Shown piece by piece: positions 1-21,220 of a stretch of 32,000 bases of DNA. The first letter of the stretch is position 1. Every line of letters begins with the position of its first letter. A program made the position numbers and the translations under genes. Where the stretch lies: the NCBI GenBank assembly GCA_965228485.1, contig OZ245819.1:180001-212000 (forward strand), in the 5' to 3' direction. The notes beneath the pieces were generated by a model. That model did no database searches, had not been told where the DNA came from, and worked only from the letters and a program-made list of their open reading frames with translations. The DNA is from Candidatus Saccharimonadota bacterium. Its GTDB lineage: Bacteria > Patescibacteriota > Gracilibacteria > UBA4473.

Positions 1-398
1 TTAGTCATTTATCAAAAGATAAAGATATAGCCAATAAAATAAAAAAAGAGTTATCTAATTATAATGCTACTTCGTTTGTCGCTCATGAAGATATTCATCC
101 TACATCGGAATGGGAGAAAGAAATAAAAAAAGCTTTATCCACTATGGATATTTTTATATCTGTGCATACTTTAGGATTTTCTAAAAGTGTATGGTGTCAA
201 CAGGAAGTTGGTTATGCAATTGGTTCTGGAAAGAAGGTTATTCCCGTAAAGTTTAATGAAAATCCACCAGGTTTTCTTTCTTCAATTCAAGCTCTTCCAC
301 GTGGTAAAAAGACAGCCAAAGAGTTAATAGAAATTATCTTATTAATTTTAAAAGATGATAAAAATACTAATGAATTATATAAAAAATTACTAAATTAA
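1..398 (+). CDS. TIR-like domain protein, 5' end outside window
   Basis: The frame starting at base 3 is open to TAA 396-398; the track shows it only from internal Met 144. Translation ..SHLSKDKDIANKIKKELSNYNATSFVAHEDIHPTSEWEKEIKKALSTMDIFISVHTLGFSKSVWCQQEVGYAIGSGKKVIPVKF.. follows the bacterial TIR layout: [FLIV]-SH start, D..A..I, W...I..AL, D.FI.V.S, S.WC..E, then IPV. Confidence 0.6.
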   Translation, partial: SHLSKDKDIANKIKKELSNYNATSFVAHEDIHPTSEWEKEIKKALSTMDIFISVHTLGFSKSVWCQQEVGYAIGSGKKVIPVKFNENPPGFLSSIQALPRGKKTAKELIEIILLILKDDKNTNELYKKLLN

Positions 399-404
399 AT
401 TTTA

Positions 405-1529
405 ATGACTGAATACAAAATACAGATATATGAAAAGAAAAAATATATTAGAAAATTAACTTTTTTGAATTTAAAAGAAGAGGTTACAAATTTTATGTAC
501 AAAAGAACGGTTGCCGCCTCTTCCAGAGGTGATTTGTTATTTTTTGTTTTAATATTTTTTCTTTCTATCAAGTCAGAAAATAGCTCAAATTCTTTATTAA
601 AGGATTTATTAGAGCAAAATATTGGGAGGTTAAAACTACTTAACGAAATGTTTGCAACAAAGAAAAATCAATTAAAAAAATATGAATATCGGGAGGTGGT
701 TGAATCTTTAGGGCTTCAAAACTTGGTTAAGTATGATGTTATATTTTTGCTTATTGAGGCCATTGAGAATGCAGATTTATTAGAAGTAAAATATCGTGAT
801 TATTTTTTAATGAATCCAGAATTGCTTAATCAATTAAATTACATTGTGGATTCTCATGGGAAAGATTTGTCAGAATTTTATACTGTTTTTAAGGGATTTG
901 ATATAGAGGATGATAGATACAATTCAATTACTGGTCATTATTTAGATTTAAGTAAAAGTGTTTACCGTCCTATAAAAATGCGGACACGTCGGAAATTGGA
1001 TATCTCTTTGCAGCAATTTACAGAAATCACTCGAATTAAAAGTGAGAGTCCAATTCTTGTTGAGTTTATTCAATCTATTGATCCTCAAATAATTTTTGAA
1101 TTATGGGATAAGTATCATTTAGCTTCTTATATCCAATCGGTTTGGGTTGAAGCAAATAATTCACCTATAATTTCAAACTTTATAGGAGGCGGTGCTGCTG
1201 GAAGTATAGTGGCTTGGATTCAATGGAAAAATACGAAAGATCCAAATGAAAAAGATTTAATAAAAAAAGAGTTAGATAAACAAAAAGTGCTTTTTTTGGA
1301 AAGAGAAAACGAACTTCTTCGAGCTTTAAATCATTCGATAAAAACTACCCCTGAAAAATTAGCTAATGAAGTTAAGAAATTAAGAGAGGAGATATTAATT
1401 TTGAGAGAAAAAGAAAAAACAAAAGAGGAAAAAAGAATATACTCTTCTTTAAAGTTAGAGTTAAGAAATCTTGAAAATTTATCTGTGGTTGTGAACGATA
1501 AAATAGATTCGGAGATTACTGATTTTTAA
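405..1529 (+). CDS. hypothetical protein, candidate partner or effector of the TIR gene
   Basis: 374-aa ORF whose ATG lies 7 nt after the TIR gene stop, so the two look like an operon. It has two hydrophobic segments (LLFFVLIFFLSI and ISNFIGGGAAGSIVAWIQW). The C-terminal ~90 aa are Lys/Glu-rich with heptad-like spacing (KKELDKQKVLFLERENELLRAL...KKLREEILILREKEKTKEEK). I recognise no family. Confidence 0.5.
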   Translation: MTEYKIQIYEKKKYIRKLTFLNLKEEVTNFMYKRTVAASSRGDLLFFVLIFFLSIKSENSSNSLLKDLLEQNIGRLKLLNEMFATKKNQLKKYEYREVVESLGLQNLVKYDVIFLLIEAIENADLLEVKYRDYFLMNPELLNQLNYIVDSHGKDLSEFYTVFKGFDIEDDRYNSITGHYLDLSKSVYRPIKMRTRRKLDISLQQFTEITRIKSESPILVEFIQSIDPQIIFELWDKYHLASYIQSVWVEANNSPIISNFIGGGAAGSIVAWIQWKNTKDPNEKDLIKKELDKQKVLFLERENELLRALNHSIKTTPEKLANEVKKLREEILILREKEKTKEEKRIYSSLKLELRNLENLSVVVNDKIDSEITDF

Positions 1530-1682
1530 TTTTTGATATAAATTTAAGAGAAAGGATGGGATTACTTAAGCTTTTGAAAAGTTTTTAGCGTGACTGTGTA
1601 TCGAACTCATCTTTCAGATACGGGTTCTCATTCTAACCAATACAAAAATAGTTTTAGACTTGAAAGCCCAAAACTATTTTCG

Positions 1683-1772
1683 TGGCGGAGAGGATGGGAT
1701 TCGAACCCACGGTACCATTGCTGGTACACTCCCTTAGCAGGGGAGCGCTTTCGACCACTCAGCCACCTCTCC
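1683..1772 (-). tRNA. tRNA-Ser (anticodon GCU), CCA encoded
   Basis: The reverse complement reads GGAGAGGTGGCTGAGTGGTCGAAAGCGCTCCCCTGCTAAGGGAGTGTACCAGCAATGGTACCGTGGGTTCGAATCCCATCCTCTCCGCCA. It has a 7-bp acceptor stem, anticodon stem CTCCC/GGGAG with loop CTGCTAA, a long variable arm (class II) and a GTTCGAATC T-loop. Confidence 0.9.
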
Positions 1773-1865
1773 GTGTACGTTTTGTGGTTACTGTTAAACA
1801 GCCAGTGAATTCTAGATAAAAAGCTATCCCCGTCAAAAAATTTACTTTGCTTTTTTATTACCAGC

Positions 1866-2675
1866 CTAGGTACGAACGATAAAACTCGTCAGCTTTGTAA
1901 ATACATACAAAACCACCAGACTCAGAATGATCCCGCTACTGGCTGGAATATCAAAGTAAAAAGAACTTGTAACTCCAACTAAGACCGCTGAAATATTGGA
2001 CATAATACTGCCATAAACATTTCCGATAAAACTTCGTGAAAAAGTCTGAGCAATGAGGACGGGGATGACCAGCAGTCCGCTGATAAGGAGTCCTCCAATG
2101 ATCTTTAGCCCGATTCCTACGATCAGAGCAATAAGCATCATAAAGGTGATTTCGTAGAAAGTTTTGTAAGGTTTTGTTTGGAGAAAATCTTGGTCAAAAA
2201 CCAAAATTAAAAACGGTCTCCAGAGGTAGATCAAGATACTGATGATTAGTAAATTGAGCCCTACAAAAATCCACATTTCATTTTTTGTAATAGTCAAAAT
2301 TGAACCAAACAGATAAGTATCTAGGGCGATAGGATTATCTTTGTTGAGGTGAACGAGTAGAAGTGTAAAAGCTAAACCCCCTGCAATCAGTAGCATAGAA
2401 AAAGCCTCTGGGGCTTGAGTAGATTTTCGGCTACCCCACCATAAAATTAGGGCAAAGATTAAAGTTGTAAGGAGTGCGAGATTGGTTGGTGAAACCTGCC
2501 AAAAAATTCCTAGTCCCACTCCAACAAGTGCGGTGTGAGAGAGCATGCCAGAAGCCATTGTCTGTCGGGCTGTAACGACGAAATTTCCAAGTATAGCCGT
2601 ACTGATTGCCGTGAAAAATCCAACGACAAAAGCCCGAACCATGAAATCGTAATTAAGTACTTCTAAGAGCAACAT
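1866..2675 (-). CDS. znuB: metal (zinc) ABC transporter permease, ABC-3/ZnuB family
   Basis: 269-aa polytopic membrane protein with the typical N-terminus (..FMVRAFVVGFFTAISTAILGNFVV..MLSHTALVGVGLG). It overlaps the upstream ATPase gene by 13 nt and is the last gene of the zinc operon. Confidence 0.85.
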   Translation of the reverse strand: MLLLEVLNYDFMVRAFVVGFFTAISTAILGNFVVTARQTMASGMLSHTALVGVGLGIFWQVSPTNLALLTTLIFALILWWGSRKSTQAPEAFSMLLIAGGLAFTLLLVHLNKDNPIALDTYLFGSILTITKNEMWIFVGLNLLIISILIYLWRPFLILVFDQDFLQTKPYKTFYEITFMMLIALIVGIGLKIIGGLLISGLLVIPVLIAQTFSRSFIGNVYGSIMSNISAVLVGVTSSFYFDIPASSGIILSLVVLYVFTKLTSFIVRT

Positions 2676-3376
2676 GATGAGTCTTTATCGTGATGATGGT
2701 GGACGGGTACGACTTGAGGAGTGGTTGTCAGTACAGGACAATCTGAAGTTTCCCCTTTGGCAAAATCTAGTGGGTGACATCCCGTGTGCATGGTTCGATT
2801 GAGGCACAAAATATGATGACATTTATCAATGATATGATCGACCTCATGGGAGACAAACAAGATGGTTACCTTTTCGGTTTTATTGAGTGTTGAGAGGAGC
2901 TCATAAATTTTTAGTTTGGTTTCAAAGTCCACTCCATTGAGTGGTTCATCAAAAATAATTAGGTCTGGGTTTTGGCAGAGCGCTCGAGCAATAATAACTC
3001 GTTGTTTTTGTCCGCCGGAAAGTTGATGAAAATTTTTATGGAGAAAGTCGTCATTCAGTCCAACTTTTTTAAGGCTTGCACTGAGTTGTTCCTTACTTCC
3101 AATGCCAGACATTTTGAGTACTTCTGCCACTGAAATGGGAACTACATTGGAGAGTGTATAGCTTTGCGGAACATAACCAATATTGATATTTGATGCGATT
3201 TCTAGAGACCCTTTGGTTGGTTTGTTAAATCCAAGAATAAGTTTTATTAGACTTGTTTTTCCCGCTCCATTTGGACCAATAAGGCCCACGTATTCTCCTT
3301 TTTTGATAGAAAAAGAAACGTCATCTAGGATGACGTTTCCTTCAATCTGTAGTTTTAAGTTTTGTGCTTTGATCAT
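2663..3376 (-). CDS. znuC: metal (zinc) ABC transporter ATP-binding protein with Cys/His-rich C-terminal tail
   Basis: Walker A GPNGAGKTS, ABC signature LSGGQKQR, Walker B LIIFDEP and H-loop SHE. The C-terminus is ..HTGCHPLDFAKGETSDCPV...VPVHHHHDKDSSCCS. Its ATG overlaps the znuA stop (TAATG). Confidence 0.85.
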   Translation of the reverse strand: MIKAQNLKLQIEGNVILDDVSFSIKKGEYVGLIGPNGAGKTSLIKLILGFNKPTKGSLEIASNINIGYVPQSYTLSNVVPISVAEVLKMSGIGSKEQLSASLKKVGLNDDFLHKNFHQLSGGQKQRVIIARALCQNPDLIIFDEPLNGVDFETKLKIYELLSTLNKTEKVTILFVSHEVDHIIDKCHHILCLNRTMHTGCHPLDFAKGETSDCPVLTTTPQVVPVHHHHDKDSSCCS

Positions 3377-4356
3377 TATGCTTCGCAGTTCAACGCTATG
3401 CTAAAGCTTTCTAGATTATTTTCCATCACATCAAAGAAATCTTTGTTTGGATCGAGAGTTCCTCGTCCCATTGGGTTTACGTTGAGGGTTCCTAGTCCTG
3501 TTTCGTTGGCGAGTGTGTCGGCAAACTTTTTAACTGAGTTTTTTTCTACTAAAATATGAGTCATCCCTTCTTCGGCTTCTTCTTTGAGTTCGGCGAGGAT
3601 TTGTGCTGATGGTTCGTCGGTAATGGAAAGACCAGCAATGGCGTGAGTTTCAAATCCGTAAGCTCGTGCCAGATAACCATAGGCATCATGAGAAATGATC
3701 ACTTCGTTTTGTGTACAGTTTTGGAGTGTCGTTTGAAATTTTGTATCTAGTGCCACAAATTTTGATTTTAGATTCTGAGCATTCGTTTCATAGGTCGTTT
3801 TATTTTCTGGATCGATTTCGATCATAGATTGCATGATTGTATCTACCATATCAGAAGCGAGAACTGGACTGAGCCACGTATGTGGATCGAATTTTCCATG
3901 GTCGTGTTCATCGTGTCCCTCTTCCTCATGAGCTTCATCTTCATGTTCTTCTTCATGCTCATCATCCTCATGATGTTCGTCTTCATGTTCTTCATGATCT
4001 TCGAATTCATAAAGTTCTAGGTGTTCAGATAGTTCGAGCGTGTTAACACTTTTTTGATTGAGTTCTTGCACTATATCTTCTGACCAAGGTTCAAGTTTTG
4101 CTCCTTGGACAAGAACAAGGTCAGCATTGTTTAGTTTTACCAAATCTTGAGGCGTTAATTGGTAGGTGTGAGGGCTCACACTTCCGGCCAAGTTTGTTAC
4201 GGCGACTTTTTTACCTCCAATTTCCTCTGCCATGAAAGCTAGAGGATAGAAGCTCGCAACAATTTGTTTTTGGTTTTCATTATTGGTTTCAGTTTCTTTA
4301 CCACATCCGATAAGGGTGAGTGATAAAAGAGTCAGAAGTAGAAAAGTTTTTTTCAT
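3376..4356 (-). CDS. znuA: zinc-binding lipoprotein, ZnuA family (cluster A-I substrate-binding protein)
   Basis: The track ORF starts at 4401, but the internal ATG at 4356 gives a lipoprotein signal (MKKTFLLLTLLSLTLIGC). There is a long His/Asp/Glu loop (HEEHEDEHHEDDEHEEEHEDEAHEEEGHDEHDHG, roughly 3880-3990), typical of Zn-specific ZnuA. Conserved metal-ligand context is present (SPHTYQL, DPHTWLSP, ISHDAYGY). Confidence 0.85.
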   Translation of the reverse strand: MKKTFLLLTLLSLTLIGCGKETETNNENQKQIVASFYPLAFMAEEIGGKKVAVTNLAGSVSPHTYQLTPQDLVKLNNADLVLVQGAKLEPWSEDIVQELNQKSVNTLELSEHLELYEFEDHEEHEDEHHEDDEHEEEHEDEAHEEEGHDEHDHGKFDPHTWLSPVLASDMVDTIMQSMIEIDPENKTTYETNAQNLKSKFVALDTKFQTTLQNCTQNEVIISHDAYGYLARAYGFETHAIAGLSITDEPSAQILAELKEEAEEGMTHILVEKNSVKKFADTLANETGLGTLNVNPMGRGTLDPNKDFFDVMENNLESFSIALNCEA

Positions 4357-4379
4357 GTTTATAAAATTAAATAAAAAAT

Positions 4380-4760
4380 TTATTGGCAAGATTTGCAGCA
4401 ACCAGAAAAAGAAAACTGGTGTTGTTTAATTTTGAGACCAGAGGCCTTGAGCTGGTCTTCGAGTTGGTGAATTTTTTCCTCTAAATCTTGATCAGAAATA
4501 CACTGGATTTCATCACAGTTTTCACAGACAAAGTGATGGTGATGATGATCGGCTTTTTCATAGTAAGTCGTTCGGCTATCGAGTAGAACGGTATCGATTT
4601 TGCCATTGGATTCGAGTCTTTCTAGGAGTCTATAAAGTGTCGTTTTATTTGGTTCTAGGTTTTGTTCTTTCAGCAATGCCTGTAATTCTGGAACAGAAAT
4701 AGGGCGGTGTTGATCGGTAAAAATTTTTAAAACGGTCTCGAGTAATGGTGTATTTCTCAT
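4380..4760 (-). CDS. zur: Fur-family zinc uptake regulator (Zur)
   Basis: The likely start is ATG 4760 (MRNTPLLETVLKIF..); the upstream extension to 4817 overlaps the preceding gene. It has a winged-helix N-domain (TTLYRLLERLESNGKI), then HHHHHFVCENC and a terminal GCCKSC, the two CxxC pairs of the Fur/Zur structural Zn site. Confidence 0.8.
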   Translation of the reverse strand: MRNTPLLETVLKIFTDQHRPISVPELQALLKEQNLEPNKTTLYRLLERLESNGKIDTVLLDSRTTYYEKADHHHHHFVCENCDEIQCISDQDLEEKIHQLEDQLKASGLKIKQHQFSFSGCCKSCQ

Positions 4761-4790
4761 AGGTGCAAAATATATAATGGAAACAAAAAA

Positions 4791-4803
4791 GCAACTTAGT
4801 AGC
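4791..4803. promoter_or_regulatory. candidate Zur operator (one-mismatch copy GCAACTTAGTAGC)
   Basis: It differs at one position from the 6-1-6 palindrome GCAACTnAGTTGC found twice at 6001-6044. It lies about 35 nt upstream of the zur ATG, next to an AT-rich -10-like TATATA, and overlaps the COG0523 stop codon. Confidence 0.4.
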
Positions 4804-5995
4804 TTTGAACAGTCCAAGCTGGGAATGGGTCAGCAAGTTTTTTCCATTCAGCTATTCCCGCATCAAATTCTTCATCGGTGAGTAGACATTGATCTAGTTT
4901 TTTGGTTATTTCTTCTTGGTTGTGTTTGATTCCGATAATTACGATTTCCTGTCGTCGATCTTTGTAGCGAGGATCCCAATTATTTTTTTTGGCTAGAATT
5001 TTGATCGGCTCTGGCCATTCTTCCATATCCACAGCTCCCCACCAACTACCAGCACAATCAAGGTTTCTCATCTTTCCAGCCTGAGAAAATGATCCTACAC
5101 CTTCCCATCGTGAAGCGAGCCAGAAATATCCTTTTGCTCGAACAACTCCGTCCCAATTTTCTTCACAATATTTCCAAAATCGTTTCGGATGAAATGGACG
5201 ATTGGCTCTATAGACGAAACTGCTGATTCCATACTCTTCAGTTTCAGGTACGTGCTCTCCACGAGCTTCTTTCAGCCACATTGGGTCTTGAGCGGCTCTT
5301 TCAAAACTAAATTTATTGGTATTTATGATTTTATTGAGTGGGACTTGGCTGTAGTTTGTTTCGATAATTTCCACACCTGGGTTTAGAGACTTAATTATTT
5401 TTCTAATCTTTTCTAGCTCACTTTTGGTCACCATATCTATTTTGTTGAGTATCAAGATATCACAAAATTCGATTTGATCGGTTAGAAGATTTACAATGTC
5501 TCTTTCGTCTTCTTCTCCAAGAGATTCATTTCGATCTTTTAGCGTATCGGTTGATTTAAAGTTATCCAAAAAGTTGGCCGCATCGACCATGGTCACCATG
5601 GTGTCTAGACGGGCAAATTCTGCCAGGTATTCTCCGCTTTCATCATCAAAAGTAAAAGTTTCGGCCACAGGAAGGGGTTCAGAAATACCCGTAGACTCAA
5701 TGAGTAGATAATCGAATCGATTTTCTTGAGCGAGTTTTTTTACTTCGATTAATAAATCTTCACGTAGTGTACAGCAGATACACCCATTACTCATTTCAAC
5801 GAGTTTTTCTTCGGTTCTAGAAAGATTGGCTTCTCCTTTTTCAATGAGTGAAGAGTCAATATTGATCTCAGACATATCATTTACAATAACAGCGACTTTG
5901 AGTCCTTCTCGATTCGTAAGAATGTGATTGAGTAGGGTAGTTTTTCCAGATCCTAAAAATCCAGAGAGTACGGTAACGGGTAATTTTTGATTCAT
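4796..5995 (-). CDS. COG0523-family GTPase (CobW/YjiA/ZigA-type zinc metallochaperone)
   Basis: P-loop [15 protein letters not shown], the metal-binding CxCC motif (GCICCTL), NKID, and a CobW_C-like C-terminal domain. The track uses TTG 6004; ATG 5995 ([10 protein letters not shown]) is more plausible. It is the first gene of the zinc operon. Confidence 0.85.
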
Positions 5996-6000
5996 AAATA

Positions 6001-6013
6001 GCAACTAAGTTGC
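6001..6013. promoter_or_regulatory. candidate Zur operator, perfect palindrome GCAACTAAGTTGC
   Basis: Perfect 6-1-6 inverted repeat, 5 nt upstream of the COG0523 ATG, in the divergent region shared with the CNNM gene. Confidence 0.45.
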
Positions 6014-6031
6014 GGTGGTTTTACTTTTTAA

Positions 6032-6044
6032 GCAACTCAGTTGC
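6032..6044. promoter_or_regulatory. candidate Zur operator, perfect palindrome GCAACTCAGTTGC
   Basis: Second perfect 6-1-6 copy, 31 bp centre to centre from the first. On the minus strand it overlaps a -35-like TTGCAA, followed by a 17-nt spacer and a -10-like TAAAAC. Confidence 0.45.
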
Positions 6045-6093
6045 AAGTCTTTTTTGTGAAATCAGGAAAAATCAAATCGATATTTAGGGTAAA

Positions 6094-7107
6094 ATGTGTT
6101 ACAATAAAGGGATTATGGAAATTTTTATCTGGATTGGAATTGTGTTTTGTGCGCTGAAAGCCGCGACGTTTTCTGGGCTTAACTTGGCGTATTTCAGTAT
6201 TCCGTATCTTCGATTGAAAGTTCTGGCAAAGAAGAAAAATCCAGAAGCTCTAAAAATTCTTGAGCTGAGAAATCAGCCAAATTTTTTGCTCTCTACGATT
6301 TTGTGGGGGAATGTGAGTTACAATGTTTTACTAACGTTATTGACCAATTCTGTGATGGCGGGAATGACGAGTTTCTTTTTTAGTACCATTGTTTTGACTC
6401 TTGTAGGGGAGATTCTTCCTCAGGCAACATTCTCAAGAAAAGCGCTTAAATTTGGAGCATTTTTTGTCCCAATGATGAAGTTTTATGAATTTGTGCTCTA
6501 TCCTATTTCTAAACCAACCGCTTTGGCGTTGGATTATTTTTTAGGAAAAGAATCACCTCAGTATTATTCGGAAAGAGATTTGATTTCTTTTATTGAAGCT
6601 CATTTAGAATCTGGAAGCGCAGAAGATATTTCGACGCGAGAGGGGAGGGGGGCAATTCATTTTTTGGAGTTGGATGATAAATTGATCAAAGATGTAGGAC
6701 AGAAGATTCAATCAGAACAGATTGTGCCTATGAATTTCAAAAAGGGGCACTTGGTAGAACCAGATTATATTCCGCATCCTGATGATCATTTTATTAAGAA
6801 ACTTATGAAGTTTTCAGGTATGGAAGTGGTCTTAGTAAGTGAAAAAAAAGAGCCAAAATTAGTCTTGGCTTTAGATGCTTTTTTACGAGCGCTTTTTGAA
6901 AAACAAGAAAAAATAGCTTTGCAGGACTTTTGTCATGTGCCGGTGGTAGTCACTGATCCGAAAGCCATTGTTTCTGATGTTTTATCTCATTTTGAAACCC
7001 TGGAAAGCGATGATTTGGAGCGAGTTTATATTGTCTATTGGCACGGACGCACGAAAAAAATTCTTACTTCGGAAGACTTGGTTTATTTGTTGATGAAGGA
7101 GATTTAG
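6094..7107 (+). CDS. CNNM/DUF21-domain membrane protein (CorC/HlyC-type putative divalent-cation transporter)
   Basis: The N-terminal region matches the DUF21 pattern (KAATFSGLNLAYFSI...LRNQPNFLLSTILWGNVSYNVLLTLL). The soluble C-terminal half is only weakly CBS-like. The start could be 6094 or 6115. Confidence 0.6.
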   Translation: MCYNKGIMEIFIWIGIVFCALKAATFSGLNLAYFSIPYLRLKVLAKKKNPEALKILELRNQPNFLLSTILWGNVSYNVLLTLLTNSVMAGMTSFFFSTIVLTLVGEILPQATFSRKALKFGAFFVPMMKFYEFVLYPISKPTALALDYFLGKESPQYYSERDLISFIEAHLESGSAEDISTREGRGAIHFLELDDKLIKDVGQKIQSEQIVPMNFKKGHLVEPDYIPHPDDHFIKKLMKFSGMEVVLVSEKKEPKLVLALDAFLRALFEKQEKIALQDFCHVPVVVTDPKAIVSDVLSHFETLESDDLERVYIVYWHGRTKKILTSEDLVYLLMKEI

Positions 7108-7357
7108 CCCCTTTTATTATTTTTTTGCTTGTCCAAAAAAATAAAAGAAAAAAAGACAGCCCGTGTAAAATTTTTGAAAAATTAATGATTTGTTTCGCTA
7201 ATTCACAAAACTCATTTCACTAACGTTCAATTCAAACGCTTGTGAATTTTGACACTCAACCCATCAAAATTTTAAGTAAAAATTTCACAGAGGGCGTAGA
7301 AAATTGCTCTGAATTTAAATGAAATTGAAACAAAGTAACAGGAACAGGTATTATTAA

Positions 7358-8830
7358 TTAGATAAATCTTTTTCTGAATAGGTAGAGTACCGATAGATAC
7401 AAAATACCACTAAATACAACAGCGTAAGCGAGATGGTTTTTGAGACAGGGGACAAACCAGATTGTTAAAAATAATCCTGCATTAAGACCAAAAATGATCA
7501 GGCAGTTAATGAGATTTAATTTAGGTGTGAAGTACTTGAGCATTACACTTGTCAGGCAAGCGAGCACGATAATTTCGCAGATAACGGTTGATATGGCTGC
7601 GGCGATGATTCCGTATTGAGGAAGGAAAACGATGTTGAGGATAAGGTTTAAACCAAAAGCGAGAGCATTGGTATAGAGCAGATATTTTTGTTTTTTCTTG
7701 GCTACGAGAGTGAAAGAAAAAAGCTGATTTAAAAAGGCAAAAAGAACTGTTGGTACCAGGATCATAAGAACCTTATCTGATCCGAAAAAGTTTTCGGTAC
7801 TGAGGTATTCGGTACTACTGAGGAGTTGAATAATTTCTGGAGCAAAGGTGTAACTTCCCCAGATGATAGGAAGGGCAAAAATGAGTAATTTTTCGATGCC
7901 CCATCCGAGAAGTTGATTGCTTTCTTCTTGGTGATTTTCGTGACGAGTGATTTTTGGCAAGATTGCTTGTCCAAAGAACACGCCGAGCACTAAAAAGCTT
8001 TCTAAAACTCTGGCACTTACTCCATAAACTCCGACGGCCGCACTTCCCAGTAAAACAGAAATCAGTACAAGATCGGCTCGAAGGTAGAGTGTTTGGAGGA
8101 TGAGAGCGATTCCGTAGGGGAGAGATTCGGTGAGTGTTTTTTTCCAGTATTCAAGATCAAAGTGTAGACGGATTGAAACTTCCAATCGAGCAAAAGCGTA
8201 GACTAAACTTACAAAGACAAGATTAGAAATGACTCCGGCCCACAGGAATGTAAAGAAGAGTGTCTCAGGGGTTTTGATAGTACCGAATTGGAAACTAATC
8301 CAGGTAATAAGTCCTGCGAGAATAATCTTTCCAGTAACGAGACTTCCAGAGAAGTATTGGATTTTCATGCGAGCCTGCAAGATCGCACTCAGTGTTCCAG
8401 CAATAATAGTTAGCGCCATAGAGAGTCCTGTAATCCAAATCCCGACTTTTACCCATTCGTTATAACTTGGGATGAGTTGAGCAATAAATCCTGCAGCGAG
8501 TGTAGCTATCAAAATAAGAACCAGTCTCATGCTGAGGATATTTCCTAGAATGTGTTCGGCTTTTTTACTTTGTTTTGGGAGTTTACTGATGTCCCTTACC
8601 GCAATAGCAAAAAGTCCAGCATCAGCTAATATTCCGAAAAAGGCCAAAAATTCATAGGCCGTTACATAGTTTCCATAGAATTCTTTTCCAAACCCAGAAA
8701 CGATTTTTACCACGATAAAACTGGCAACAACCGTTCCTACTTTCCCTAGGAATTGAATCAGAGCATTGGTAAGTACTTTTTTGTGACTGGGCATGCGGGA
8801 TGATTTTATGTGAAAAAATCCCATTATCAA
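7358..8830 (-). CDS. MOP-superfamily oligosaccharide/polysaccharide flippase (Wzx/MurJ-like)
   Basis: 490 aa with about 12-14 hydrophobic helices throughout and the N-terminal motif ..NALIQFLGKVGTVVASFIVVKIV.. typical of polysaccharide biosynthesis (Wzx) proteins. The true start may be ATG 8794. Confidence 0.55.
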   Translation of the reverse strand: MIMGFFHIKSSRMPSHKKVLTNALIQFLGKVGTVVASFIVVKIVSGFGKEFYGNYVTAYEFLAFFGILADAGLFAIAVRDISKLPKQSKKAEHILGNILSMRLVLILIATLAAGFIAQLIPSYNEWVKVGIWITGLSMALTIIAGTLSAILQARMKIQYFSGSLVTGKIILAGLITWISFQFGTIKTPETLFFTFLWAGVISNLVFVSLVYAFARLEVSIRLHFDLEYWKKTLTESLPYGIALILQTLYLRADLVLISVLLGSAAVGVYGVSARVLESFLVLGVFFGQAILPKITRHENHQEESNQLLGWGIEKLLIFALPIIWGSYTFAPEIIQLLSSTEYLSTENFFGSDKVLMILVPTVLFAFLNQLFSFTLVAKKKQKYLLYTNALAFGLNLILNIVFLPQYGIIAAAISTVICEIIVLACLTSVMLKYFTPKLNLINCLIIFGLNAGLFLTIWFVPCLKNHLAYAVVFSGILYLSVLYLFRKRFI

Positions 8831-8890
8831 CTTATTAACAAATTAGGGATTCTTCTTGCTTTAAGAGGCTTTTGTGTATAAAAAGATTGA

Positions 8891-10117
8891 ATGCCCATAA
8901 ATGAAATTTTATCGATTCTGTCCATTGATCCTCATGATCACTTCCAGATATTGCTCCTATTGATGGTGGTCGTTTGGGGAGCGGGAAGAATTTTTAAGTT
9001 AATGGGATTGCCGCCAATGCTTGGAGAAATCTTGTCGGGAGTCTTAGTTGGCCCCTCTGTTTTAGGGCTTCTGGATACGACTGAATTTATTAAAATATTA
9101 GCCGAATTGGGAGTTTTCTTTCTCATGTTCCATTCTGGATTGGATACCGATATGAAAGAGTTTTTTGGGAGAGTTAAGGCTTCCATGGCGGTGGCTTTTG
9201 GTGGCATATTTATGACCTTTCTATTCTCGATATTTTTCTTCCAATTTTTTAAATTTCATTGGGTTACTGCAGCCTTCTTATCCTTAATGTTGGCTTTGAA
9301 TTCTATTCCAGTAATTGTTTCGGTTTTAAAAAGTTTTAAGCTCAAGAACTCAAAGATTGGGCATATAGTTTTGGGATCTTCTGTGGTGAATGAGTTGGTG
9401 CTCTTTATTGTGTTTTCTGTCTTAATTGCTCTGGCTCAGTCTGGAGAGTTTTCACTTCAAATGTTGATTCTGGTAAGTGTCAAAGTGCTTCTGTTTGTTT
9501 TGGGATCACTGCTTATTGGCCTAGAAATACTGCCATTTATTGGTCCAAAAATTCTCAATCGATCCGGATCAAAAGGCTTTACCTTTGCTTTGATCATCGC
9601 TCTGTTTTTTGGGCTTTTTGCTGAAGCGATTGGTCTTCATATGATTATTGGAGCGTATGTGGCCGGACTCTTCGTTCGGCAAGAAATTACAAAGCCAGAT
9701 TTGATGCGTAAGATTGAAGATAGGTTTTATGCTTTGTCTCATTCATTTTTAGGTCCAATATTTTTTGCTTCAGTAGGGATGATGATTTCTTTTGAAGCGA
9801 TTCTGTCTCATCCGTGGTTTGTGTTGAGCCTGCTCTTGATTGTGATTTGTGGTCAGATTTGTGGAACTTGGTTGGCAGCTTTATTTTTGCCAGGACTGAC
9901 TCCAAAGCAGACTTGGCCGATTGGTATTGCGCTCACAGGGCGGGGGAGTACAGAGATTATTATGGCTCAAATTGGTTTTTCTACTGTGGTGACGGCTACA
10001 GGAGCAACGATTCTCGATAAGTCACTTTTTGCGAGTATTGTTGGTTTGGCTTTTGCTTCCACGTTATTGATGCCAATATTACTTAAGTGTTATTTAAAAA
10101 TTAGTGCGAGGTTCTAG
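8891..10117 (+). CDS. cation:proton antiporter (CPA2 / Na_H_Exchanger family)
   Basis: 408-aa polytopic protein with the family N-terminal signature GLPPMLGEILSGVLVGPSVLGLL...LAELGVFFLMFHSGLD. Confidence 0.75.
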   Translation: MPINEILSILSIDPHDHFQILLLLMVVVWGAGRIFKLMGLPPMLGEILSGVLVGPSVLGLLDTTEFIKILAELGVFFLMFHSGLDTDMKEFFGRVKASMAVAFGGIFMTFLFSIFFFQFFKFHWVTAAFLSLMLALNSIPVIVSVLKSFKLKNSKIGHIVLGSSVVNELVLFIVFSVLIALAQSGEFSLQMLILVSVKVLLFVLGSLLIGLEILPFIGPKILNRSGSKGFTFALIIALFFGLFAEAIGLHMIIGAYVAGLFVRQEITKPDLMRKIEDRFYALSHSFLGPIFFASVGMMISFEAILSHPWFVLSLLLIVICGQICGTWLAALFLPGLTPKQTWPIGIALTGRGSTEIIMAQIGFSTVVTATGATILDKSLFASIVGLAFASTLLMPILLKCYLKISARF

Positions 10118-10140
10118 GTTTTGTTCTAGAATAAAGATCG

Positions 10141-11370
10141 ATGAATTTTTTTAGAGAACATAAGTTAAAGGGTTTTGGGAAATACTTCGTGAGTCATAAG
10201 GATGTTTATTCAGCTTTAACTGCTCAGACACTTGAGACTACTGTGGGGGCAGTTGTTTTTGCACTTATGCCTGTTATTTTAGCTTTTTATCTTGGGAATG
10301 AGCAGATAGCAGGGATTGTAATTGCGTTGTTTACGGCGTTGCAGATATTTGTTTTTATTCCTTTATCTGGAGTCGTGATTGATAAAAAAGGCGCACTTCT
10401 GGCGATGAAGCTCGGAGTTTTTGCTGAAATAATTGGAATTTTGTTATGGGTTTTGGTGGATTTGAATTGGGGGATTTATTTTTTCTTTTTGGGATACTTT
10501 TTTCGATGGTCTTTTTTCTTGATTGACCCTTTTTTACTCCGTCGAACTGAATCTGAAGAAGGGGGGTTTTGGTTTGGGTTGAAAGAGGAGATTATTGCTA
10601 TTGGTAATTTTCTGGGGATACTGGTTTTTACTTGGTTTGTAGCTCGTGAACACTGGTACTTTTTACCATTTGTTTCGGCTTTAACTCATATTATTTCTTT
10701 ATCGTTTTTGTATACGGTTGAGGTGAAAGGCAAAAAACGAAAAATTACTTGGAAGGCTTTGTGCCAGGCTTTTAATTATTGGCATTTTATCAAATCTGGT
10801 TTGTCTTTTATTCATAAGAACCATCGTTATCCATTGTTTAATTTAGGAAGTAATTTGTTTGAGGGGCTATTCTATGGTTCTATTTGGTTCTTATTACCAC
10901 TACATCTTGCGAAGATGGCGGTGGAAGGGGACTCTCTAAGCTTGGGAATATATGAGGTGGTAACGATTGCTTTTGCCTTAATCTGTGGAGTTTTGGCTGA
11001 TCGACTGGACTGGAGAAAGCAAGAATTATTTTCTTGGCTCATTATGATTGTAATGGTCTGGATACTCCCTTTTTGGCATTCTCAATTTGCTTTAGTCGTG
11101 ATAGGATTCGTTATTGGTTTAGCTAATAATTTCTTCGCTTCTGCAGGCTATCATGTATTAGCTTTGTTTGATGAAGACCATGAAGAAGATGGTCAGTATG
11201 TGGCTTTTGCCAAAATTGTTTGTAATTCAGGCTATATGGTTTCACCCATTATTTGCGGTTATCTTTATTACAATTTTGGGTTTGATTTGGCTTTAGTATT
11301 TGTAGCCGTTGTGGTGACGCTTATTGCCTTGTGGATGCTGTTTCTGACGAAAAAATTGGGACGTATATAA
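10141..11370 (+). CDS. MFS-type transporter (putative)
   Basis: 409 aa with about 10-12 predicted helices in two halves separated by a basic loop (VEVKGKKRKITWK). No substrate can be inferred. Confidence 0.45.
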   Translation: MNFFREHKLKGFGKYFVSHKDVYSALTAQTLETTVGAVVFALMPVILAFYLGNEQIAGIVIALFTALQIFVFIPLSGVVIDKKGALLAMKLGVFAEIIGILLWVLVDLNWGIYFFFLGYFFRWSFFLIDPFLLRRTESEEGGFWFGLKEEIIAIGNFLGILVFTWFVAREHWYFLPFVSALTHIISLSFLYTVEVKGKKRKITWKALCQAFNYWHFIKSGLSFIHKNHRYPLFNLGSNLFEGLFYGSIWFLLPLHLAKMAVEGDSLSLGIYEVVTIAFALICGVLADRLDWRKQELFSWLIMIVMVWILPFWHSQFALVVIGFVIGLANNFFASAGYHVLALFDEDHEEDGQYVAFAKIVCNSGYMVSPIICGYLYYNFGFDLALVFVAVVVTLIALWMLFLTKKLGRI

Positions 11371-11455
11371 AAAAATTGGCTAAAAAATTTGACGTACAAA
11401 TTGAATCTCATAGAATCTCTCGGCTCCTTTGAAAAACGTTCTTTTTATTGTGACT

Positions 11456-11530
11456 GGCCCGGTCGTCTAGTGGTTAGGACGCCAGGTTTTCATCCTGGTA
11501 ACCGGAGTTCGATTCTCCGTCGGGTCACCA
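11456..11530 (+). tRNA. tRNA-Glu (anticodon UUC), CCA encoded
   Basis: GGCCCGG TC GTC TAGTGGTTAG GAC G CCAGG TTTTCAT CCTGG TAAC CGGAG TTCGATT CTCCG TCGGGTC A CCA. The layout parallels E. coli tRNA-Glu, and the anticodon loop is TT-TTC-AT. Confidence 0.9.
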
Positions 11531-11536
11531 TTTCAA

Positions 11537-11586
11537 AATAGCCTGATAGTATTTCGTAATATGAGGCTATTTTTGTGTTTTTTCTG
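11537..11586 (+). terminator. probable intrinsic terminator after tRNA-Glu
   Basis: AATAGCCT (11537-11544) pairs with AGGCTATT (11564-11571), followed by TTTGTGTTTTTT. The 19-nt loop is rather large. Confidence 0.45.
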
Positions 11587-11625
11587 GTTTGAATTTTCCT
11601 CGGCAACCAGTTACCCTAAGAAAAA

Positions 11626-12474
11626 ATGAAATATTGGAAAAAATTAGGGGCACGATCTGTACGAGAGGGAACGCTACAGTTATGGCGTAATAAATTTCTT
11701 TCAGGAACAACTATTCTACTGGGAGCTTTGGTCGTGTTTTTGTTGAATTTTATTTTTGCGATTCAGTATTTTACGGATTTATCTTTAAAAAACCTTGAAG
11801 CTCGGGCCGATTTTGCGATTCCAATTCGAGAATCTGCGGAAGCTTTTGATATAGATTCTCTGCGCAATGATTTGAAAAATAATTTTGATGTGGAGATCAA
11901 AATCCTTCCGCCTGAAAATTTTACTAATTTTGTCGTGCCAGAACGTTTGTACATTAAGTTTAAAGACTTGAAACAAGTGCCAGGAATTTTTGAAACGCTC
12001 AAAAGTTTGCGTTATGACACCGTAATAGGAGACTGGGATGGTGCGGCAGAAAGAGATTTTGTAACCCTGGTAGAAAAGTTGTTAAAAATTCGTGAAGCGG
12101 TGGATAAGGCGAGTTTTTGGCTCGTTATTATCTTTATTGGTGGGGGAGTAATGCTCGCAGTAAATGCCTTTCGGATTGTTTTGTTTTCACGGAAGCAGGA
12201 GATATTTATCGCTCGCTTGGTTGGTGCTGATACTATTTTTATTGCGGGACCTTTTCTTTGGGAAGGGATTTTACTAGGAATTGTTTCGGCGCTGATTGCA
12301 CAGCTTATTTTTATTTTTGTTTTACGAGAAATAGAGTTTTTGCCAGGAGGAGATATATTTATTCATCTTTGGAATAATATTTTCTCAGCGCAGATTATCG
12401 TTGCTGGATTGGTAGGCCTTACCGGAGCGTGGCTTGCCATTAAGAAATATTTAACAGGGAATTTTGCCAACTAG
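11626..12474 (+). CDS. ftsX: cell division ABC-transporter permease-like protein FtsX
   Basis: 282 aa. It has the N-terminal motif ..SVREGTLQLWRNKFLSGTTILLGALVVFLLNFIF, an extracytoplasmic domain of about 110 aa, and then three C-terminal TM helices, which is the classic FtsX topology. Confidence 0.7.
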   Translation: MKYWKKLGARSVREGTLQLWRNKFLSGTTILLGALVVFLLNFIFAIQYFTDLSLKNLEARADFAIPIRESAEAFDIDSLRNDLKNNFDVEIKILPPENFTNFVVPERLYIKFKDLKQVPGIFETLKSLRYDTVIGDWDGAAERDFVTLVEKLLKIREAVDKASFWLVIIFIGGGVMLAVNAFRIVLFSRKQEIFIARLVGADTIFIAGPFLWEGILLGIVSALIAQLIFIFVLREIEFLPGGDIFIHLWNNIFSAQIIVAGLVGLTGAWLAIKKYLTGNFAN

Positions 12475-16399: not shown

Positions 16400-17890
16400 T
16401 TAAATATTAATAAGTGGTATTTCGTCGAGTTTTTCAGTGACTCGTTGACTGTTTTCAAGTTTGTCTAAGTATTCTTGATCAATGTCTCCTGTAATGTATT
16501 TTCCATCAAAACAAGAAGCATCAAAAGTTTGAATATTTTGATTTCCTTCACTGGCTGCCCAAACTAGGTCCTCTAATTCTTGATAGAAAAGAGCATCAGC
16601 TCCAAGAACCTGACGAATTTCTTCAGTTGTAAGGTTGTGGGCGATGAATTCTTTTCGAGTTGGCATGTCTATACCATAAACGTTTGGATATTTTACGGGA
16701 GGAGCAGCACTGGCGACATAAACATTCTTAGCTCCAGCGTTCCGACAGAGGGAAACAATTTGTTTCATAGTATTTCCTCGAACGATTGAATCATCTACCA
16801 GTAATATATTTCGGTTTCTAAATTCAAGTGGGATAGCATTGAGTTTTCTTTTTATTGATTTTTGACGCTCTGATTGCCCAGGCATAATAAAAGTTCTTCC
16901 AACATATCGATTTTTAACGAGCCCTTCTCGATACTTGATTCCTGTTATTTTTGACATTTCTAGGGCTACTGGACGGGCTGAATCTGGAACCGGAATAATA
17001 CTGTCAATTTCTAATCCTGAAGCTTCGATCTGTTTCGCTAAAGCTTGTCCCATTCTGAGTTGTGTTTTGTATACAGAGATGCCATCGATCATCGAATCTG
17101 GTCTCGCTAGGTATACGTATTCAAAAATACAAGGATGAATTTCTCCTGGAGCACATTGCTGAGAGGTCATGTTTCCTTGAAAATCAATCAAGACCGCCTC
17201 TCCTGGGGCTACATCTTTTACTTTTTCAAAACCCCCAATAGAAAAAGCCACATCTTCTGAAGCAAAAGCCCATTCATCACCAAAGCTTGTAGAACGTTTA
17301 CCAAGAGATAGGGGACGAATACCATTTGGATCTCGAAAGGCGAAAAGTCCTACCTTATCAATAAGGGTAATTACAGCATAAGCTCCTCGAATTCGTTCCA
17401 TAGTTAATTTTGCTGCTTCAAAAACAGCTTCTGTGTCTTCGATTTCTGAATGGCTTTTTAAAACTTCATAAATTTTATCGGCGAATACATTGAGTAATAC
17501 TTCTGAATCGGAAGTGGTTCGTAGATGTCTTCTGTATTTATGCTGAATTTTTTTTCTTTGTTCTTCTGTGTTGGTTAAATTTCCATTGTGAATAAGATAT
17601 ATTCCGAAGGGGGCATTAACGAAGAAAGGTTGAGCTTCTTTGGCGCTAAGACTCCCAGCGGTTGGATATCGGACATGGCCGAGTCCGGCTTTTCCGCGGA
17701 GCCTTTCTGTGTGATGACTCATAAAGACATCTTTTACCAGGCCATTACTTTTTCGTTCATGAAAGAAGTTTCCATCATGAGTAACGATTCCCGCGGCATC
17801 TTGTCCACGGTGTTGAAGCATTAAAAGTCCATTGTATAATTCTGGGAATACTTCGTTTTGTTGATTGAGAATACCAATAATTCCGCACAT
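16400..17890 (-). CDS. purF: amidophosphoribosyltransferase
   Basis: 496 aa. The N-terminal nucleophile MCGIIGI, plus RGQDAAGI, the PRPP-binding loop ILLVDDSIVRGNT, and ..HNGNLTN.. are canonical class II glutamine amidotransferase/PurF features. Confidence 0.9.
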   Translation of the reverse strand: MCGIIGILNQQNEVFPELYNGLLMLQHRGQDAAGIVTHDGNFFHERKSNGLVKDVFMSHHTERLRGKAGLGHVRYPTAGSLSAKEAQPFFVNAPFGIYLIHNGNLTNTEEQRKKIQHKYRRHLRTTSDSEVLLNVFADKIYEVLKSHSEIEDTEAVFEAAKLTMERIRGAYAVITLIDKVGLFAFRDPNGIRPLSLGKRSTSFGDEWAFASEDVAFSIGGFEKVKDVAPGEAVLIDFQGNMTSQQCAPGEIHPCIFEYVYLARPDSMIDGISVYKTQLRMGQALAKQIEASGLEIDSIIPVPDSARPVALEMSKITGIKYREGLVKNRYVGRTFIMPGQSERQKSIKRKLNAIPLEFRNRNILLVDDSIVRGNTMKQIVSLCRNAGAKNVYVASAAPPVKYPNVYGIDMPTRKEFIAHNLTTEEIRQVLGADALFYQELEDLVWAASEGNQNIQTFDASCFDGKYITGDIDQEYLDKLENSQRVTEKLDEIPLINI

Positions 17891-21103: not shown

Positions 21104-21220
21104 ATGCTACACTCTCCTGGAGCGAAGACTTCCTGGTTTGGTGCGATAGGACGTAAAATCCTGTCAATTTTTTTAGTATGGGCATTATTGCTTCCACTAC
21201 TGCCACCACAGGTTTTTGCT
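21104..21220 (+). other. Sec signal peptide of the giant protein
   Basis: MLHSPGAKTSWFGAIGRKILSIFLVWALLLPLLPPQVFA|QS has a basic n-region (R17 K18), a hydrophobic core and an A-x-A-like VFA cleavage site. Confidence 0.7.

Follow-up and report, generated by a model that had tools for sequence, protein, structure and literature searches.

At one end of the 32,000-nucleotide stretch of Patescibacteriota DNA analysed here (hereafter the window), a short AT-rich islet next to a tRNA gene carries the 3' part of a TIR gene, closely followed by a gene for a 374-residue protein of an uncharacterised family that we call FAM. A first-pass annotation had proposed that the two genes form a defence module in which the TIR protein works with a membrane effector. 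Do they constitute such a dedicated pair, or does the islet bring together genes that function independently of each other? To answer this question, we analysed the composition and setting of the islet, the features of both proteins and the genetic environments of their homologues.

An AT-rich islet beside a tRNA-Ser gene

The features of the islet and its surroundings are collected in Table 1. Its low GC content had been noticed at first sight and was borne out: GC makes up a fraction of 0.281 of the islet and 0.384±0.028 of the remaining window (z = -3.8). The GC3 values of its two genes are 0.15 and 0.22, compared with 0.20-0.40 in the other genes of the window. Because the nearest FAM homologue sits in a Gracilibacteria MAG, we also weighed genetic code 25. 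Translation tables 11 and 25 gave the same gene calls, and neither of the two islet genes contains an in-frame TGA.

Table 1. Features of the islet and of the adjacent tRNA gene (window coordinates)
Feature	Position	Strand	Basis or remark
AT-rich islet	1..1529	.	three lowest 500-base GC bins in the window
3' part of TIR gene (131 codons + TAA)	3..398	+	Pfam TIR_2 match
374-aa FAM ORF	405..1529	+	uncharacterised family; alignment, AlphaFold2 model
13/14-base direct copy of the tRNA-Ser 3' T-arm/acceptor part (1688-1701)	1550..1563	+	repeat D6
tRNA-Ser (anticodon GCT)	1683..1772	-	ARAGORN; 3' end toward islet

The tRNA-Ser gene, which the first reading had also placed beside the pair, indeed faces it with its 3' end, across a gap of 153 bases. 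Within this gap, on the tRNA side of both islet genes, lies the short repeat of tRNA sequence listed in Table 1. When bases 1-1682 were shuffled 150 times, no match of at least 13 of 14 bases to the terminal 40 bases of the tRNA arose, and the copy is a possible relic of an attachment site. The islet combines the deviant composition and the adjacency to a tRNA 3' end by which tRNA-linked genomic islands are recognised. It looks like the tRNA-proximal end of a horizontally acquired segment whose far boundary would lie upstream of base 1, in agreement with the earlier view that this DNA was imported. In addition to low GC and the tRNA 3' end, it shares with tRNA-linked genomic and defence islands a defence-type cargo and a partial tRNA 3' copy. 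In contrast, its integrase would lie beyond the window together with the far boundary, and the recombinases of FAM-carrying islands in other genomes are large serine enzymes, for which tRNA genes are not the classical targets.

A TIR protein with no fixed partner

Frame 3 is open from base 3 to base 398 and up to the window edge, and it reads SHLSKDK...EWEKEIKKAL...MDIFISVHT...SVWCQQEVG. The TIR-type domain initially recognised from such motifs was confirmed by a profile search, as the fragment aligns to positions 4-106 of the 122-position Pfam TIR_2 profile (PF13676) with an E value of 2e-15 and 57.8 bits, for a cut-off of 28. The 5' end of the gene was rightly placed outside the window. The full-length protein found in the database (P0048) has 228 residues, of which the window shows the last 131, and it scores 64.5 bits with TIR_2 against the same cut-off. 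Its TIR domain is preceded by an N-terminal region of ~95 residues that matches no family. The Glu residue that follows an S-x-W-C/T motif is catalytic in TIR NADases. Judging from its sequence, the TIR gene carries a catalytic-type Glu in the WCQQE context; this residue (E165 of the full protein, in SVWCQQE) is invariant across 19 TIR homologues.

The TIR homologues share 37-43% identity with the window protein over their full length and 47-58% across the TIR part. We examined seven TIR loci, which represent four distinct settings (L010-L013, L050, L051 and L053). The gene lies between housekeeping genes in L010 and L011 (same setting), in L012 and L051 (same setting) and in L013, and in L050 and L053 it belongs to the cargo of elements that carry a tyrosine integrase as well as HTH_17 and DUF3987. 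FAM was found near none of the seven, based on FAM profile scans of L010-L013 and on the gene tables of L050, L051 and L053. Similarly, none of these loci harbours a ThsA-type gene (SIR2, Macro, SLOG or TM) beside the TIR homologue.

Several features are shared with the single-protein TIR defences TIR-V, -VI and -IX of E. coli (PMC11350192) and with stand-alone TIR NADases, namely a short protein with TIR as its sole recognisable domain, a catalytic-type Glu, no fixed partner and, sometimes, a location in the cargo of integrative elements. Nevertheless, the window TIR matches those proteins at the level of the domain only, not as a sequence-level family, and its N-terminal region has no equivalent. 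It also weakly matches the PADLOC ThsB models of Thoeris (E 4e-8, about 31 bits) and NCBIfam ThcB4. However, the ThcB4 score is 34.6 bits for a cut-off of 220 and the PADLOC ThsB matches are partial, which leaves the protein below family level for ThsB, and no ThsA-type effector (SIR2, Macro, SLOG or TM) is encoded downstream of it. The first reading had mentioned Thoeris and TIR-STING as systems with TIR components; neither a ThsA-type nor a STING-type partner is visible in the window, and a ThsA-like partner might still be encoded upstream of base 1.

FAM proteins lack a recognisable family or fold

The 374-residue ORF had been described as starting seven nucleotides downstream of the TIR gene. 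The ORF itself stands, but six bases separate the TIR stop codon from the FAM start codon, and thus the ATG begins at the seventh base past the stop. As first surmised, the protein falls outside described families: searches of Pfam, NCBIfam, PADLOC and PHROGs with the window protein gave nothing above noise. Using 27 FAM members as queries, we obtained only coiled-coil noise from Pfam at E ≤ 5 (LapA_dom, ZapG-like, phasin) and a single chance match to Cas5b (E 0.002) from PADLOC v2.0.0, PDC models included (E ≤ 1). None of the 27 matched SLATT even at E ≤ 5, and profile searches detected no SLOG, SAVED, STING, Macro or other signal-binding or effector domain. The FAM profile had no match among PDB sequences.

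AlphaFold2 yielded a confident model of FAM, with a pLDDT of 86.8 and a pTM of 0.84. No structural counterpart was found for the full model in PDB and BFVD, or for the core model (residues 1-252) in PDB; no fold match reached an E value below 0.06 or a TM-score higher than about 0.3. ISHp608 TnpA, MakE and Hbl-B were dismissed as fold relatives, their matches being at noise level. With E values of 0.38-5.3 and TM-scores of about 0.10-0.15 for MakE and Hbl-B, we also rejected FAM as a ClyA-type alpha pore-forming toxin.

FAM proteins are composed of an alpha/beta core, a variable hydrophobic or amphipathic helix and a C-terminal helical, coiled-coil-like region. The latter corresponds to the charged C-terminus pointed out earlier, which the model folds into helices (residues 280-357), and it may drive oligomerisation. 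The core harbours the motifs I-x-DDRYDE and HDLSKSVYR-x(3)-MR, and in the alignment D169, R171, D181, S183, K184, S185 and R193 are invariant and D173 and R188 nearly so. The clustering of charged residues on the beta-hairpin/helix core suggests a putative catalytic or nucleic-acid/ligand-binding site; any enzymatic role of FAM would be by inference from these residues. As an observation only, the invariant D169...D181-L-S-K184 on the beta-hairpin loosely recalls a PD-(D/E)xK-type nuclease site. Searches of Pfam, of PDB sequences with the profile and with Foldseek returned no nuclease family match.

Two hydrophobic segments had been reported. Both are present in the window protein, although conservation as a transmembrane segment is seen for neither of them. 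One consists of ~12 apolar residues with charges on both sides, and the other, rich in Gly and located at about 251-270, resembles a TM segment in roughly one third of the homologues. Hydropathy analyses across homologues revealed no conserved transmembrane segment, and FAM appears to be a soluble protein, compact in the model. The initial description of a two-TM membrane effector is at odds with these features and with the absence of SLATT or effector domains; a SLATT-like, 2-TM effector was discarded both for want of a SLATT match and because the hydropathy peaks are not conserved.

Genetic environments of FAM

FAM is a rare family. We collected 47 homologues, and a profile search of 1.84 billion representative proteins yielded 49 clusters, with only same-length FAM members and fragments returned. 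All named hosts are CPR genomes. A comparison of PurF, made to place the host lineage, gave 82% identity to a protein on a 1.33-Mb contig and 68-70% to the PurF of Rhodobacteraceae; within this analysis, it is the distribution of FAM that assigns the genome of the window to CPR. We found no FAM in the 2.9 million viral contigs of IMG/VR, and a phage origin was rejected on that basis. None of the 45 FAM loci besides the window contains a TIR gene.

Analyses of the FAM loci revealed an association with type I restriction-modification (RM) operons. FAM lies between HsdR and HsdM in L001, between HsdM and a 164-aa gene followed by HsdS in L020, after HsdM in L028, and after HsdR and an HsdM-S fusion in L034. 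In L001 and L020, it is nested on the same strand between subunit genes of a known defence system. In type I RM operons FAM has the orientation of its neighbours and is often translationally coupled, with stop/start overlaps with hsdM, and it is also found outside such operons. Looser neighbours include a PLD-SNF2 helicase and an Eco57I-type methylase, divergently transcribed, in L015, as well as AAA_16 and KAP NTPases. Clustering of the neighbours by BLAST and jackhmmer identified no universal partner within five genes; the recurrent families are serine recombinases, HTH proteins and RM subunits. The neighbours of FAM elsewhere are thus RM and other defence genes. The candidate defence role first attributed to the islet is plausible for both of its genes.

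In ten distinct contexts, the window among them, the gene just before FAM on the same strand encodes an enzyme, either ≤27 bases away or in a 4-base overlap, and these enzymes include nucleases, helicases and methylases. Such an arrangement might be expected of a generic accessory protein (a sensor, guard, regulator or scaffold) serving whichever effector adjoins it, be it HsdR, HNH/GmrSD, a ResIII nuclease, a Schlafen-type helicase or, here, TIR, for example by sensing its inhibition or by activating it. The insertion of FAM into operons, where M is one neighbour and either R or S lies on the other side, and its lack of a recognisable catalytic domain or fold point in the same direction. Nevertheless, the adjacent partners (TIR, HsdR, HsdM, HNH, SF1/SF2 helicases) are structurally unrelated, which makes one specific physical interface unlikely, and the position of FAM in type I operons varies. 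Furthermore, at least eight loci have FAM at the head of a transcription unit of its own, in divergent orientation or among unknown neighbours only. We consider an accessory function of this kind unlikely.

Alternatively, FAM might be a maintenance or core gene of CPR integrative elements, involved in exclusion, partition or replication control, and its proximity to RM genes would result from shared islands. Consistent with this idea, a large serine recombinase is encoded within five genes of FAM in 6-7 of 30 non-redundant loci, a ParB-methylase fusion is present at 4 loci, an HTH_Tnp_1_2-like gene at 4-5, and a Rep protein in L026. However, most FAM loci have no recombinase within five genes, and where there is one its distance and orientation to FAM vary. 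A core gene of such elements would also fit poorly with the location of FAM within type I RM operons, in overlap with hsdM, and with its absence from viral contigs, and we regard this explanation as improbable.

Probably two stacked modules rather than one system

In the window, the TIR and FAM genes lie on the same strand, and we found no terminator or clear promoter in the six bases that separate them. Thus, they are probably co-transcribed in this genome, where they may also cooperate functionally. However, a TIR gene and an uncharacterised gene that lie close together on an islet provide no evidence for a signalling pair. A dedicated two-gene system, in which TIR would sense infection and make a nucleotide signal or deplete NAD+, and FAM would be the membrane-disrupting effector, might be argued from this spacing, from the Gly-rich hydrophobic helix at about 255-275 of the window FAM, from the weak likeness of some members to TM-plus-coiled-coil proteins (LapA_dom, ZapG-like) and from the few ClyA-type toxins (MakE, Hbl-B) among the noise-level fold matches, but it is very improbable, given that the pair occurs in this window only (FAM in 0/7 TIR loci, TIR in 0/45 other FAM loci), that FAM has neither a conserved transmembrane segment nor a SLOG, SAVED, STING, Macro or SLATT domain, and that those fold matches have TM-scores of about 0.1-0.2 and E values above 0.06. 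The lack of co-conservation, which the first-pass annotation had itself named as a refuting outcome, contradicts its TIR-plus-effector pair.

We lean slightly towards a small imported defence islet that stacks two autonomous single-gene modules, instead of one two-component system. Single-protein TIR defences have been demonstrated by experiment (PMC11350192). By analogy with those of E. coli, the TIR protein would act alone, with infection-triggered NAD+ consumption leading to abortive infection; both its NADase activity and the defence function of the two proteins are what we infer from these likenesses and contexts.

As for the second module, genes located inside type I RM, BREX and DISARM systems often turn out to be defence systems in their own right (bioRxiv 10.1101/2024.01.29.577857; PMC11411939). 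The location of FAM between hsdR and hsdM or between hsdM and hsdS resembles that of PrrC, TgvAB and the HEC/PDC candidates of Payne et al. In contrast with these, all named hosts of FAM are CPR, and neither in sequence nor in fold does it resemble PrrC, GmrSD or any PADLOC model. Based on its embedding in known systems, FAM would be an independent defence-type gene, and possibly a back-up layer to restriction. Less easily reconciled with this view are the loci in which FAM has unknown neighbours alone (L007, L040 and L042), its position just behind an enzyme gene in ten contexts, as would also suit an accessory role, and its lack of a recognisable catalytic fold. More tentatively, and with less than an even chance in our estimation, FAM might represent a new, CPR/Patescibacteria-specific family of single-gene immune proteins with a fold not seen before, acting independently of TIR, for example as a second line of immunity, by killing or arresting the cell or by attacking the invading nucleic acid once the restriction system around it has been bypassed or inhibited.

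Implications for CPR immunity

CPR/Patescibacteria are mostly devoid of CRISPR and are thought to depend on island-borne restriction-modification (PMC12455944). Their immune repertoire is little known because defence catalogues have been built from cultivated, RefSeq-type genomes. To our knowledge, next to nothing has been described of that repertoire beyond restriction-modification. As FAM recurs in CPR restriction operons and defence clusters and has no annotated homologue or structural neighbour, it is a concrete candidate, amenable to testing, for a function in defence or as an accessory of restriction that is specific to this lineage.

A low-GC islet with a TIR gene and an orphan gene

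As the first-pass annotation had observed, a TIR-type gene and a 374-aa ORF form a two-gene islet of low GC content next to the 3' end of a tRNA gene. The ORF calls, a Pfam TIR_2 match and a tRNA-Ser(GCT) gene confirmed this observation, and both the islet and its TIR gene are real. The GC content is 0.281 in the islet (bases 1-1529) versus 0.384±0.028 over the remaining window (z = -3.8), with GC3 values of 0.15 and 0.22 for its two genes. Between the second gene and the tRNA gene, 120 bases off the tRNA end, lies a direct repeat of the T-arm/acceptor portion at the 3' side of tRNA-Ser, with a degree of matching reached in none of 150 shuffles. This copy may be an att-site relic from an earlier or tandem integration.

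The TIR fragment present in the window matches Pfam TIR_2 at profile positions 4-106 of 122 (E 2e-15; 57.8 bits for a gathering score of 28), and the proposed TIR-type domain is thus upheld. PADLOC ThsB-type and NCBIfam TIR-containing models gave weak, domain-level matches. The complete product (database record P0048, 228 aa) consists of an N-terminal region of ~95 residues, for which no family was matched, followed by the TIR domain. Its ~30 homologues, from Novosphingobium and Asticcacaulis among other sources, are mostly proteins of 210-230 residues with the same architecture, the others being shorter and apparently partial. Full-length identities are 37-43%, and the TIR part alone gives 47-58%. 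Residue E165, the Glu of the S-x-W-C/T-Q-Q-E motif, and an FVAHEDI motif are invariant in 19 aligned homologues.

Main features of the window and of the loci encoding FAM (the family of the 374-aa ORF) or TIR homologues
Locus	Feature	Coordinates	Strand	Remarks
Window	TIR gene, 3' part	3-398	+	Frame 3, open to left window edge; 131 residues, TAA at 396-398
Window	FAM ORF	405-1529	+	374 aa; starts six bases past TIR stop codon
Window	tRNA copy	1550-1563		13/14 bases identical to 1688-1701
Window	tRNA-Ser(GCT)	1683-1772	-	3' end toward both genes, 153 bases apart
Window	Zinc-uptake cluster	1866-6004	-	Includes 145-aa ORF (4380-4817)
Window	PurF	16400-17890	-
Window	Giant ORF	21104-32000	+	>3,632 codons; runs past right window end
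L001	HsdR / FAM / HsdM - 179-aa gene - HsdS			Type I RM; Gracilibacteria chromosome
L020	HsdR - HsdM / FAM / 164-aa gene - HsdS - NucS-like nuclease			Type I RM
L028	HsdM / FAM			Type I RM
L034	HsdR, HsdM-S fusion, FAM, 235-aa gene, DUF3800			Type I RM
L002-6	EcoRI-type methylase, GmrSD_N-HNH, FAM
L017	C5 methylase, N6_N4 methylase, HNH, FAM
L014	ResIII/TnsA-like nuclease / FAM / DUF2779
L027	Schlafen-group-3 helicase / FAM
L015	PLD-SNF2 helicase (1094 aa), Eco57I/MmeI-type N6 methylase (1037 aa)	49-6443	-	Divergent from FAM (7187-8302); Saccharibacteria MAG
L030	FAM adjoining AAA_16 protein
L039	KAP NTPase			Two genes downstream of FAM
L001	Recurrent recombinase module	2501-5558		Also in L030 and L039
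L019	Recurrent recombinase module	9073-12188
L007	Conserved FAM cassette	6875-9658		Also in L009
L008	Conserved FAM cassette	298-3574
L022	Short FAM-like ORF	6608-6862		84 aa
L048	Short FAM-like ORF	6001-6372		123 aa
L010, L011	AhpC / TIR / DUF455			Identical settings
L012, L051	ruvB / TIR / ybgC-tolQ			Setting repeated
L013	pyrF / TIR / thioesterase
L050	Integrase element with TIR	4815-8693
L053	Integrase element with TIR	4847-8690

The FAM family

We collected 47 FAM homologues from a collection of 5.8 billion proteins, and only 49 clusters were found among 1.84 billion representative proteins; FAM was absent among the 2.9 million viral contigs searched. Full-length members have ~360-400 residues and a single architecture, the remaining entries being fragments. 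Named hosts are Gracilibacteria, Saccharibacteria, Campbellbacteria, Parcubacteria and 'Patescibacteria group' MAGs, and the closest homologue (51% identity) comes from a Gracilibacteria MAG. Searches against Pfam, NCBIfam, PADLOC (including PDC candidates) and PHROGs returned coiled-coil noise only, which strongly supports the initial view that the ORF has no assignable family.

The alignment contains 21 invariant residues, clustered in the motif I-x-DDRYDE...HDLSKSVYR-x(3)-MR (residues 167-193). The AlphaFold2 model, based on 27 aligned sequences, is confident and compact (pLDDT 86.8, pTM 0.84). It predicts a mixed sheet made of an N-terminal strand, beta-hairpins 170-181 and 206-225 and a C-terminal strand, wrapped by long helices, with those of residues 280-357 forming a C-terminal helical region. 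Residues 1-252 modelled apart gave a pLDDT of 84. No credible structural neighbour was found for the full model in the PDB and BFVD or for the 1-252 model in the PDB (best E 0.06, TM-scores up to ~0.3).

The first-pass annotation had read two hydrophobic segments as those of a membrane effector. The stretches are present, yet neither is a conserved transmembrane segment: the first comprises ~12 apolar residues between charges, and the Gly-rich helix 251-270 is transmembrane-like in about one-third of the members and polar in the others. A membrane effector is therefore not supported.

Two loci, L022 and L048, which have other neighbours in common, harbour short ORFs corresponding to the N-terminal part of FAM only. 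These may represent copies that were truncated or have decayed, or else a shorter form of the family. One of the two is labelled Candidatus Azotimanducaceae, which is not a CPR-type name.

FAM genes are embedded in defence operons

FAM is rare and lacks a recognisable fold. Its known hosts all belong to the CPR (tiny-genome, Patescibacteria-type bacteria), and its genes lie within operons for restriction and for other kinds of defence. Its contexts were established from precomputed gene calls and our own ORF calls with Pfam scans. In addition to restriction-modification (RM) genes, they include a DISARM-like helicase-methylase pair (L015). Many junctions between FAM and its neighbours are 3-8-base gaps or 4-base overlaps. 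We clustered the neighbours within five genes of FAM in 30 non-redundant loci and found no universal partner among them. The commonest families are large serine recombinases (6-7 of the 30 loci) and RM subunits, together with XRE-type HTH proteins, an HTH_Tnp_1_2-like protein and a fusion of ParB with a methylase at 4-5 loci each. The FAM neighbours in L007-9, L040 and L042 had no Pfam or PADLOC matches. L007-9 share a cassette coding for proteins of 214 and 236 residues, FAM, then a protein of 183 or 260 residues; this last gene also follows FAM beside the Schlafen-type helicase of L027.

This pattern, with no fixed partner, nesting in or next to unrelated defence systems and recombinase-bearing islands, is that of 'guilt by embedding'. 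The study that used this approach reported that genes lying inside systems of the type I RM, BREX, DISARM and Hma kinds often turned out to be defence systems in their own right (bioRxiv 10.1101/2024.01.29.577857), and TgvAB is an example embedded in type I RM (PMC11411939).

The tight coupling of FAM to a neighbour in ten contexts could also indicate a general accessory or guard for whichever effector precedes it. However, the partners are structurally diverse and FAM stands alone in some loci, which makes this role unlikely. Several FAM-bearing CPR islands harbour a module in which a large serine recombinase occurs with an HTH_Tnp_1_2-like protein of ~150-210 residues and a ParB_N-N6_N4 methylase fusion. 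This module is likely to form the backbone of an integrative-element family. The recurrence of recombinase modules speaks for FAM itself belonging to the backbone of such CPR elements, but its nesting within hsd operons speaks against this, and we regard it as rather improbable.

The TIR and FAM genes are not conserved together

We read the contexts of TIR homologues at seven loci, which represent four distinct settings, and found no constant neighbour. In L050 and L053, the TIR gene is apparently the cargo of elements with a tyrosine integrase (Arm-DNA-bind_3 and Phage_integrase), HTH_17 and DUF3987 proteins. Their layout recalls P4-like satellites, known carriers of defence hotspots.

The FAM profile had no match in L010-L013, and the gene tables of L050, L051 and L053 contain no unknown gene of FAM size; conversely, the TIR-family profile detected no TIR in the 45 other FAM loci fetched. 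FAM thus occurs at 0/7 TIR loci and TIR at 0/45 other FAM loci. The proposed TIR-FAM pairing is not a conserved system, and because the two genes are not co-conserved, the point on which the first-pass annotation itself had made the pairing depend, we rejected it. A dedicated TIR and membrane-effector pair is very improbable, as FAM also has neither a conserved transmembrane segment nor any signal-binding domain.

Other features of the window

Twelve of the 20 complete ORFs of at least 100 residues end with TAA, eight with TAG and none with TGA. Across ~10,100 codons, those of the giant ORF among them, there was no in-frame TGA, despite its high frequency in the two alternative frames. In the other CPR loci fetched, TGA represents ~10-40% of stops. 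These counts hint that this genome avoids TGA or leaves it unassigned. The Gracilibacteria, to which the MAG with the closest FAM homologue belongs, are known for UGA reassignment. At >3,632 codons, the giant ORF codes for a giant protein, and the genome that carries it is ~1.3 Mb in size.

The genome of the window was assigned to the CPR from the relatives of its FAM protein. PurF has its closest relatives in MAGs; one protein is 82% identical to it, and Rhodobacteraceae homologues (Ruegeria, Shimia, Phaeobacter) are 68-70% identical, which would be unexpectedly close if the host is a CPR bacterium. This likeness suggests either that purine genes were transferred horizontally or that the host belongs to another lineage. 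Directly past tRNA-Ser, the zinc-uptake cluster, named by eye from translations, comprises znuB, znuC, ZnuA with a long His/Asp/Glu-rich insert, the 145-aa ORF and a COG0523/CobW-type GTPase.

Proposed roles

We slightly favour the view that the islet is a stack of two autonomous modules, a stand-alone TIR and a candidate defence gene. Single-protein TIR systems have been shown by experiment to protect Escherichia coli (PMC11350192), and CPR bacteria reportedly rely largely on genomic-island RM systems (PMC12455944). What the data show is the identity, distribution and context of the two genes; their defence function and the following steps are inferred. The stand-alone TIR would deplete NAD+ upon infection. 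For FAM, the invariant acidic/basic cluster suggests a putative enzymatic or nucleic-acid/ligand-binding site, and the C-terminal helical region might mediate oligomerisation. FAM is a more interesting object of the islet than the proposed pairing, and we tentatively raise the possibility that it represents, in CPR bacteria, a new immune protein encoded by a single gene.
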